From assembly GCA_024281315.1 (NCBI GenBank), contig JAJSAE010000075.1:4222-68221 (forward strand): a stretch of 64,000 nucleotides of DNA. Direction: 5' to 3'. The position numbers were made by a program, and so were the translations under genes. Origin of the DNA: an archaeon. GTDB taxonomy: Archaea > Thermoplasmatota > Thermoplasmata > JAJSAE01. Below, piece after piece: positions 43,551 to 47,088 of this stretch; the stretch's first letter is position 1, and the number at the start of each line of letters is the position of its first letter. The notes beneath the pieces are model-generated. The model did no database searches, was not told the origin of the DNA, and saw only the letters and a list, made by a program, of their open reading frames with translations.

Positions 43551-47088
<3,538 letters not shown>

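Follow-up and report, generated by a model that had tools for sequence, protein, structure and literature searches.

An in-frame TAG codon in a STAND ATPase gene within an archaeal riboflavin operon: probably a recent nonsense allele of an accessory gene

We describe an interrupted gene in a stretch of 64,000 nucleotides of an archaeon of the Thermoplasmatota (assembly GCA_024281315.1, contig JAJSAE010000075.1, positions 4,222 to 68,221), which we call the window and whose coordinates are used throughout. The gene lies on the minus strand within a riboflavin operon, between the genes ribL and ribC, and its product belongs to the STAND ATPases with a sensor of tetratricopeptide (TPR) repeats. 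The frame is broken by a single TAG at 44899..44897 (c-t-a in the letters of the plus strand), which is codon 732 of the ancestral frame. The open reading frame (ORF) upstream, 47092..44900, has 731 codons and ends with the residues ...ALEIRERLNDE immediately before the TAG, as seen on translation of 44015-47092. After the TAG the same frame reads GAALTLNNIGNVLRTKG... and continues for 293 sense codons up to a TGA at 44017..44015. A listing of ORFs consequently splits the gene into 44897..47092 (731 aa) and 44015..44881 (288 aa, with a TTG start), and a public gene call (P0001) is identical to the 731-residue upstream piece. The downstream stretch of 293 codons has no stop in the frame of the gene, although the two remaining forward frames contain 19 and 21, and homologues align across both pieces with E = 0; the downstream open frame is therefore not due to chance. 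A first-pass annotation of this DNA had pointed to a TAG lying in one frame between two ORFs, and both the translation and the plus-strand letters bear this out.

The relationship of the two pieces is clear from their homologues. A protein search with the fused protein, in which X was placed at the stop, returned >100 homologues, each about 1,000-1,050 aa long and aligned over 97-98% of the query, mostly from metagenome-assembled genomes (MAGs) of Thermoplasmata or Thermoplasmatota. The closest at full length are P0002 (1005 aa, 62% identity) and P0003 (1004 aa, 50% identity). Both are positional orthologues: the genes in the genomes L001 (GCA_024277315.1) and L002 (GCA_015522885.1) are single uninterrupted ORFs of 1005 and 1004 aa, respectively. 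In L001 the gene lies between ribB-ribL and ribC-ribH, just as it does in the window; in L002 it lies between ribL and ribC-ribH, with ribB beyond the end of the contig. The stop and start codons overlap at both ends of the gene in L001 and L002, again as in the window. On the strength of these alignments the two ORFs are one ancestral gene of ~1,025 codons. This had been proposed from the window sequence, and it accords with the fused state of the homologues and of the two syntenic orthologues; orthologues split into two genes, which had been named as a refutation, are not what these two show.

The codon alignment places TGG (Trp) in L001 and CAG (Gln) in L002 at the site of the TAG, each one transition away from it. 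Among 58 full-length homologues the residue in the corresponding column varies (R 12, Q 7, K 7, H 6, S 4, W 3, and others), and not one of these 58 is broken there. The neighbouring positions are conserved, with D at –2, G at +1, A at +3 and L at +6, followed by NNIG. Because a variable column is thus set between conserved neighbours, the stop falls exactly in the TPR register and at a position that tolerates substitution. The first-pass annotation was right that the register is kept across the TAG, to judge from the 58-sequence alignment and its conserved flanks. Its remark that Tyr or Asn occupies this position in other repeats holds for two later repeats, and it had suggested on this basis that a TAY codon changed to TAG. 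The orthologous codons are TGG and CAG, so either of these is the likelier source; a TAY codon is a possible but less well supported one, resting as it does on paralogous repeats within the same protein.

Two other proteins have a bearing on the position of the break. P0062 is also exactly 731 aa long and was considered as a second truncation at the site of the TAG. We reject this as a coincidence; the start of P0062 is 27 residues further on, its sequence departs from residue 701 onwards, its contig ends 34 nt away, and it is not in a rib context. L015:1756-4565 encodes a distant member of the family, with 44% identity in its nucleoside triphosphatase (NTPase) portion; here a 642-aa NTPase ORF is followed directly by a 293-aa TPR ORF with which it shares one base. 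The arrangement may be a native form with two genes or a further broken copy, and its split lies at a different position from the TAG of the window.

What is the protein? The AAA_16 model (PF13191) matches the upstream piece with 77.7 bits against a cut-off of 32.6 (E = 2e-21). Across 50 homologues conservation reaches 90% or more at the G, K and T of Walker A and at the ED of Walker B. Structure prediction gives the insert between these motifs a fold of beta-beta-alpha-beta-beta-beta-alpha that matches solved longin or Roadblock domains; a Pfam scan of the insert gave no match, Robl_LC7 and longin included. Longin and Roadblock domains such as those of MglB, LAMTOR and SNARE longin stand alone or partner a small GTPase, whereas here the domain is inserted in the NTPase domain of a STAND protein. 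Foldseek with the P0002 model ranked 6mfv_A (PH0952) second, with E = 5e-12 and 982 aligned columns spanning the whole target. The TM-scores against 6mfv_A are low (0.22/0.33), so that the domain arrangement is only broadly similar, and the sequence similarity to 6mfv is confined to the TPR part. With PH0952 of Pyrococcus horikoshii (PDB 6mfv; PMC6468293), among solved proteins the nearest one built to this overall plan, and with MalT of Escherichia coli the family shares a layout of AAA_16-type P-loop NTPase, helical and winged-helix region and long TPR sensor. It differs from both in having no recognisable effector or DNA-binding domain, and in the longin-fold domain of ~110 residues between Walker A and Walker B. 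The gene product is thus predicted to be a STAND ATPase of the MalT/PH0952 type that bears an array of TPR repeats as its sensor, the chain running in the order nucleotide-binding domain, helical domain, winged helix and repeat sensor. In the STAND-TPR family contact between the TPR sensor and the NTPase helps to maintain the latter in an autoinhibited state (PMC6468293), for which reason the loss of half the sensor should matter.

Membership of an anti-phage STAND system (Avs and the others in PADLOC) was considered and rejected on the profile matches. No NCBIfam or PADLOC model reaches its curated cut-off, and the sub-threshold PADLOC matches are to generic TPR models, Avs3a (12.6 bits, E = 0.003) and mad8 (18.8 bits). 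Homologues of ~40% identity are found in unrelated gene contexts, with several copies per genome.

Table 1. Positions of the interrupted gene, its parts and the neighbouring riboflavin genes in the window
Feature	Position	Strand	Remarks
ribB (DHBP synthase)	47580..48299	-	Pfam scan
ribL-type FAD synthetase gene (CTP_transf_like)	47089..47562	-	stop overlaps start of interrupted gene
5′ copy of 14-nt direct repeat ATGAAGAAGATTGG	47079..47092	-	ribL stop overlapping start of interrupted gene
Upstream piece, 731 codons	44900..47092	-	AAA_16/STAND NTPase, longin-fold insert, helical/winged-helix region and first ~10 TPR-type helices
Walker A GEAGIGKT, residues 55-62	46907..46930	-	
Insert separating the two Walker motifs, residues 88-275	46268..46831	-	longin/Roadblock-superfamily fold; best-conserved part of family
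Walker B-like strand VLLVLEDLHW, residues 278-287	46232..46261	-	
In-frame TAG	44897..44899	-	orthologous codon TGG in L001, CAG in L002
Downstream piece, 293 sense codons	44018..44896	-	~7 TPR repeats and C-terminal helices; TPR_12 E = 7e-39
First possible restart TTG, sixth codon past TAG	44879..44881	-	GGAG at 11-nt spacing
ATG of public gene call P0362 (275-aa downstream product)	44840..44842	-	
Ancestral stop TGA	44015..44017	-	overlaps ribC start (ATGA)
3′ copy of 14-nt direct repeat ATGAAGAAGATTGG	44005..44018	-	ribC start
ribC, archaeal-type riboflavin synthase (DMRL_synthase family), 155 aa from ATG 44018	43551..44018	-	
ribH (lumazine synthase)	43103..43513	-	TAG-terminated

The gene is not a constant component of the operon. 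The junction between ribL and ribC was surveyed by a RibC search and contig look-up in eight related genomes including the window. It is occupied in three of these (the window, L001 and L002) and empty in the other five (L026, L027/L028, L029, L030/L031 and L038), where the stop of ribL overlaps the start of ribC. L027/L028 and L038 share their wider gene order with the window, with DNA that is 80-83% identical, while L026, L029 and L030/L031 are relatives of L001 and L002. The cassette of the window (44019-47092, minus strand) has ATGA stop/start overlaps at both ends. The homology of the window to the empty relatives L027 and L038 stops exactly after ATGAAGAAGATTGG and resumes at the ribC start with the second copy of this repeat. 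Recombination between the two copies would regenerate the empty arrangement of the relatives. The gene of the window begins with a 19-codon N-terminal extension MKKIGRGAIAVNMGPLGGK (47036-47092, minus strand) that is absent from the orthologues, whose starts are MNE.. or MNV.., and that looks like a degenerate copy of the 5′ end of ribC.

Closely related genomes differ in whether they carry the cassette. From the start of ribC onwards the occupied L002:3513-8289 is 99.7% identical to the empty L030:215-4991 over 4,777 nt. On the other side, L002 and L031 (whose ribL 3′ end is the same as that of L030) agree in 348 of the first 350 nt, and fall to 64-88% identity over the last ~155 nt of ribL (L002:350-506). 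Because the ribC side is nearly identical while the 3′ end of ribL is divergent, a recombination tract ends sharply at the cassette, whose presence or absence varies at the level of the strain. The identity of the STAND protein between the clades (62%) is in the same range as that of RibL (~61%) and RibH (~66%), which fits vertical descent with repeated, precise loss; transfer by recombination takes place too. On this comparison of genomes the gene is accessory and dispensable in the lineage, and as relatives repeatedly lose it a real nonsense allele would be unsurprising. L029, a close relative of L001 that lacks the STAND cassette, has a gene for a 406-aa Tricorn-like beta-propeller protein between ribC and ribH (L029:5563-6783). 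In this lineage, foreign genes are thus admitted to the riboflavin operon at several of its junctions.

How old is the stop? The downstream piece is 66.6% identical to that of L001, and the upstream piece 60.9%. The identity of the downstream part to L002 is 38.1% for the window and 37.9% for the intact gene of L001, and because these distances are equal there is no acceleration of rate in the downstream part of the window. Synonymous sites are saturated with respect to both orthologues (proportion of synonymous differences, pS, 0.71-0.88), and thus the comparison is confined to the uncorrected ratio of nonsynonymous to synonymous proportions (pN/pS) and to relative rates, with no dN/dS. Against L001 pN/pS is 0.206/0.708 downstream and 0.237/0.775 upstream. 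Of the residues with 70% or more conservation in the family, the downstream piece of the window keeps 41 of 50 and that of the intact orthologue P0002 37 of 53. Stop codons would be created by 4.55% of the possible single substitutions in the downstream frame, and from the absence of further stops the neutral divergence since the event is less than ~7.5% (95% bound). With synonymous sites saturated against even the nearest orthologue, this bound makes the event recent on the orthologue scale. No decay of the downstream piece was detected, either as further stops or as constraint relaxed relative to the orthologues. Read from the sequence, the change is recent, or it is not real, or expression of the downstream piece continues.

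We consider that a real, recent nonsense allele in a dispensable gene is the most probable explanation, at roughly 60%. A single base substitution would have converted a sense codon to TAG, most likely TGG by a G-to-A or CAG by a C-to-T change, in a cassette gene that is translationally coupled between ribL and ribC. Transitions are the commonest class of spontaneous substitution and either candidate change is a transition, which we count in favour of a real mutation. The change would be evolutionarily recent, because the 879 nt downstream remain intact, with the appearance of being under selection. Provided that the base is real, as we infer, ordinary termination at UAG would give a 731-aa protein that retains the NTPase with its longin-fold insert, the winged-helix region and ~10 of the ~25 TPR helices, i.e. 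~40% of the sensor, and that loses the last 14-15 sensor helices. Such a product would be expected to be defective, whether non-functional or mis-regulated. Since the gene is dispensable in the lineage, the simplest account would be that pseudogenisation has just begun, or that a loss-of-function allele circulates in the population from which the sample came. The frame is disrupted relative to intact orthologues, as in a pseudogene, while the further lesions and relaxed constraint of one are absent; if it is a pseudogene, then it is one at the very first step.

Several observations weigh against a real nonsense allele. There is no second lesion and no detectable relaxation of selection, which is what an error, or a downstream piece that is still expressed, would likewise predict. 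An error of consensus or base call would, at the level of sequence, fit every result equally well. With no orthologue nearer than 62% identity, the ancestral codon, be it TGG, CAG or another, is inferred and not observed. No genome of the same species that shows the allele independently was found in scans of genome contigs, metagenome contigs and the protein database with the fused protein; the contig scans gave only relatives of 19-29% identity and the protein database nothing closer than 62%. A scan of viral contigs gave only AAA_16 relatives of 20-28% identity.

The TAG might accordingly exist only in the contig, through an error of sequencing, assembly or consensus, the organism having a sense codon such as TGG or CAG and an intact gene of ~1,025 codons. 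A single base separates TAG from either orthologous codon, the downstream piece looks no different from a gene on which selection acts fully, and the metagenome-derived contig of 74,734 nt is a single record. Yet there is no sign of poor base quality in the window. The other ~50 ORFs scanned have no interruptions or frameshifts, and the conserved ones have full-length Pfam matches. As only ~4.5% of random substitutions create a stop, a rare error would have had to land unluckily as well, while in a gene that relatives do without a real loss-of-function allele is no surprise. We hold such an artefact to be possible but less likely than a real allele. The proposal in the first-pass annotation of a very recent nonsense mutation or a sequencing error was well chosen. 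The locus resembles ordinary nonsense-mutated genes of prokaryotes and MAGs in its single in-frame stop, in being an accessory gene absent from close relatives and in the calling of two adjacent ORFs in the same frame. It differs from them in having no second lesion and no measurable relaxation of constraint, and so a consensus error cannot be told apart from a mutation on these grounds. Most likely this is an event of an everyday kind, an incipient pseudogene or a consensus error, and not a signal of recoding.

An intact downstream frame would also be explained if the gene had been split into two functional parts. The TAG would then end the NTPase piece, ribosomes would restart at TTG 44881 or ATG 44842, and the TPR tail would work as a separate chain together with the first piece. 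GGAG is present just past the TAG, with the TTG 15 nt after the stop; a separate 275-aa product is called publicly (P0362), and in the distant L015 an NTPase ORF is followed directly by a TPR ORF. However, the start signals are poor. GGAGG is found 6-8 nt before the ATG at 6 of 24 well-supported starts surveyed in the window, including those of the interrupted gene itself and of ribC. The TAG is followed by no more than a GGAG, which arises from the stop together with conserved Gly-Ala codons and is thus a by-product of these, and it lies 11 nt before TTG 44881; no usable motif precedes ATG 44842. Nor is the gene split elsewhere, both orthologues and the >100 homologues being fused; two independent genes would be expected to show a downstream start signal and split orthologues, and neither is seen. 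Moreover, in the AlphaFold2 (AF2) model of the orthologue P0002 (mean confidence, pLDDT, 87.7) the site corresponds to W710, at the start of the helix 709-726. W710 lies inside a continuous array of 25 TPR-type helices, with 10 before and 14 after, and the site of the TAG is therefore not a domain boundary but a break within a continuous solenoid. From the weak restart signals and the position of the site in the model, a functional split appears unlikely, and we give it little credence beside a nonsense allele.

Is UAG a stop codon in this organism, or is it recoded? If it were decoded, by pyrrolysine (Pyl), by a suppressor transfer RNA (tRNA) or by programmed read-through, the full-length protein would be made at least part of the time, consistent with the perfect maintenance of the frame and a downstream piece that looks selected. 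The stops of 52 non-overlapping long ORFs in the window are TGA in 23, TAA in 18 and TAG in 11 (21%). TAG-terminated genes with full-length Pfam matches include glnA, eIF-1A, a nifS-type aminotransferase, ribH, tpt1, DUF835 and two kaiC-like genes. The TAG-terminated CARDB protein of 12602-13375 has a C-terminal membrane helix and a basic tail. TAG is thus a genuine stop in the window, as had been stated earlier, with conserved genes ending there at normal C-termini, contrary to expectation for decoded UAG. The TAG of the CARDB gene (13373-13375) is followed by 140 sense codons, and was examined as a second candidate for read-through. It was rejected; the protein ends with the membrane helix and KKKKYARKYR, and the 140 codons past its stop are antisense to another ORF. 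Among the other genes of the window none continues for long in the same frame in a way that resembles one interrupted gene. One example given by the first-pass annotation was misread, that of a TGA immediately after the TAG of 18096-18971. The TGA there lies in another frame (TAG-G-TGA), and past the TAG (18096-18098, minus strand) there are 22 sense codons in frame before a TAA.

In archaea the median usage of TAG stops is 5.0% in Pyl-positive and 22.0% in Pyl-negative genomes, Pyl-positive archaeal genomes span 1-27%, and ~5% of high-quality archaeal genomes are Pyl-positive (PMC12626013). The 21% of the window lies with the Pyl-negative median and fits a Pyl-negative genome without proving it; given the range of 1-27% in Pyl-positive archaea, TAG usage is not decisive alone and is no reliable ground for excluding Pyl. 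The earlier argument from TAG usage against global reassignment of UAG stands to this extent, that the usage weighs against reassignment and falls short of excluding it.

The machinery for decoding is missing from the window. In the 64 kb there is no tRNA by ARAGORN and no match to an Rfam family, no pyl or methylamine methyltransferase domain was found among the window ORFs scanned with Pfam, and no methanogenesis genes are seen. The RNA on the 3′ side of the TAG (120 nt, –25.9 kcal/mol) folds no better than shuffled sequences (mean –27.4 kcal/mol, z = +0.47). Conservation of the stop codon at the site, as expected of read-through, is not found, the orthologues having ordinary Trp and Gln codons. 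The suggestion of programmed read-through is thus not supported, in view of the absence of the stop from the orthologues, the lack of structure, and the lack of tRNA and pyl genes in the window.

The position of the organism points the same way. Its MCM protein has five relatives at 73-88% identity, after which identity is at most 48% to everything else among the matches listed, a group that includes named Thermoplasmata, Methanobacteriota and one Methanomassiliicoccales MAG. This places the organism in a deep and thinly sampled lineage of Thermoplasmatota, distant in MCM from every named lineage among those matches. There is a precedent for decoding in that Methanomassiliicoccales have in-frame TAGs in genes whose homologues have none (PMC4153887). 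The gene of the window shares with the Pyl genes of Methanosarcina and Methanomassiliicoccales (PMC4153887, PMC12626013) a TAG in a gene of regulatory or sensor type, homologues with a sense codon and an intact downstream frame. It differs in the absence from the window of pyl machinery, tRNA and methanogenesis genes, in a TAG usage like that of Pyl-negative genomes, and in the deep Thermoplasmatota branch to which it belongs. Taken with the ordinary codons of the orthologues, we regard decoding of UAG as very improbable. Scarcely more can be said for partial decoding, through Pyl, a suppressor tRNA or leaky termination, that would give both a short and a full-length sensor in a deep-branching and apparently non-methanogenic archaeon. 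If it were true, it would provide a conditional switch between two isoforms of a strain-variable STAND sensor in the riboflavin operon, like that proposed for UAG-containing regulators of Methanosarcina.

Elsewhere in the window there are further genes of note. A 1175-aa Eco57I/MmeI-like type IIG restriction-modification gene (32003-35530, minus strand), with Eco57I, N6_Mtase and TaqI_C domains, sits between gyrB (35499-37412) and gyrA (29488-32028) and overlaps both as the ORFs are drawn. On the plus strand a 2193-aa ORF (6021-12602) codes for an STT3/AglB-like oligosaccharyltransferase domain at the N-terminus and for many CarboxypepD_reg/transthyretin-like repeats; its stop is overlapped by the start of the gene for the 257-aa CARDB protein (12602-13375) with its C-terminal membrane anchor. 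Four ORFs on the minus strand at 14063-18087 (206, 210, 666 and 264 aa) have no Pfam match, and the run adjoins a kaiC-like ATPase gene (18096-18971) and a V4R-domain gene (18995-19885).

Our analysis shows that the TAG carries little weight as a candidate for recoding. It has value for annotation, in that the public gene calls of 731 and 275 aa should be merged and flagged as one interrupted gene. Of modest interest for the biology are a strain-variable cassette that is placed between ribL and ribC, its start and stop codons overlapping with theirs, and an uncharacterised, multi-copy family of Thermoplasmatota STAND ATPases with a predicted longin-fold domain inside the NTPase domain.
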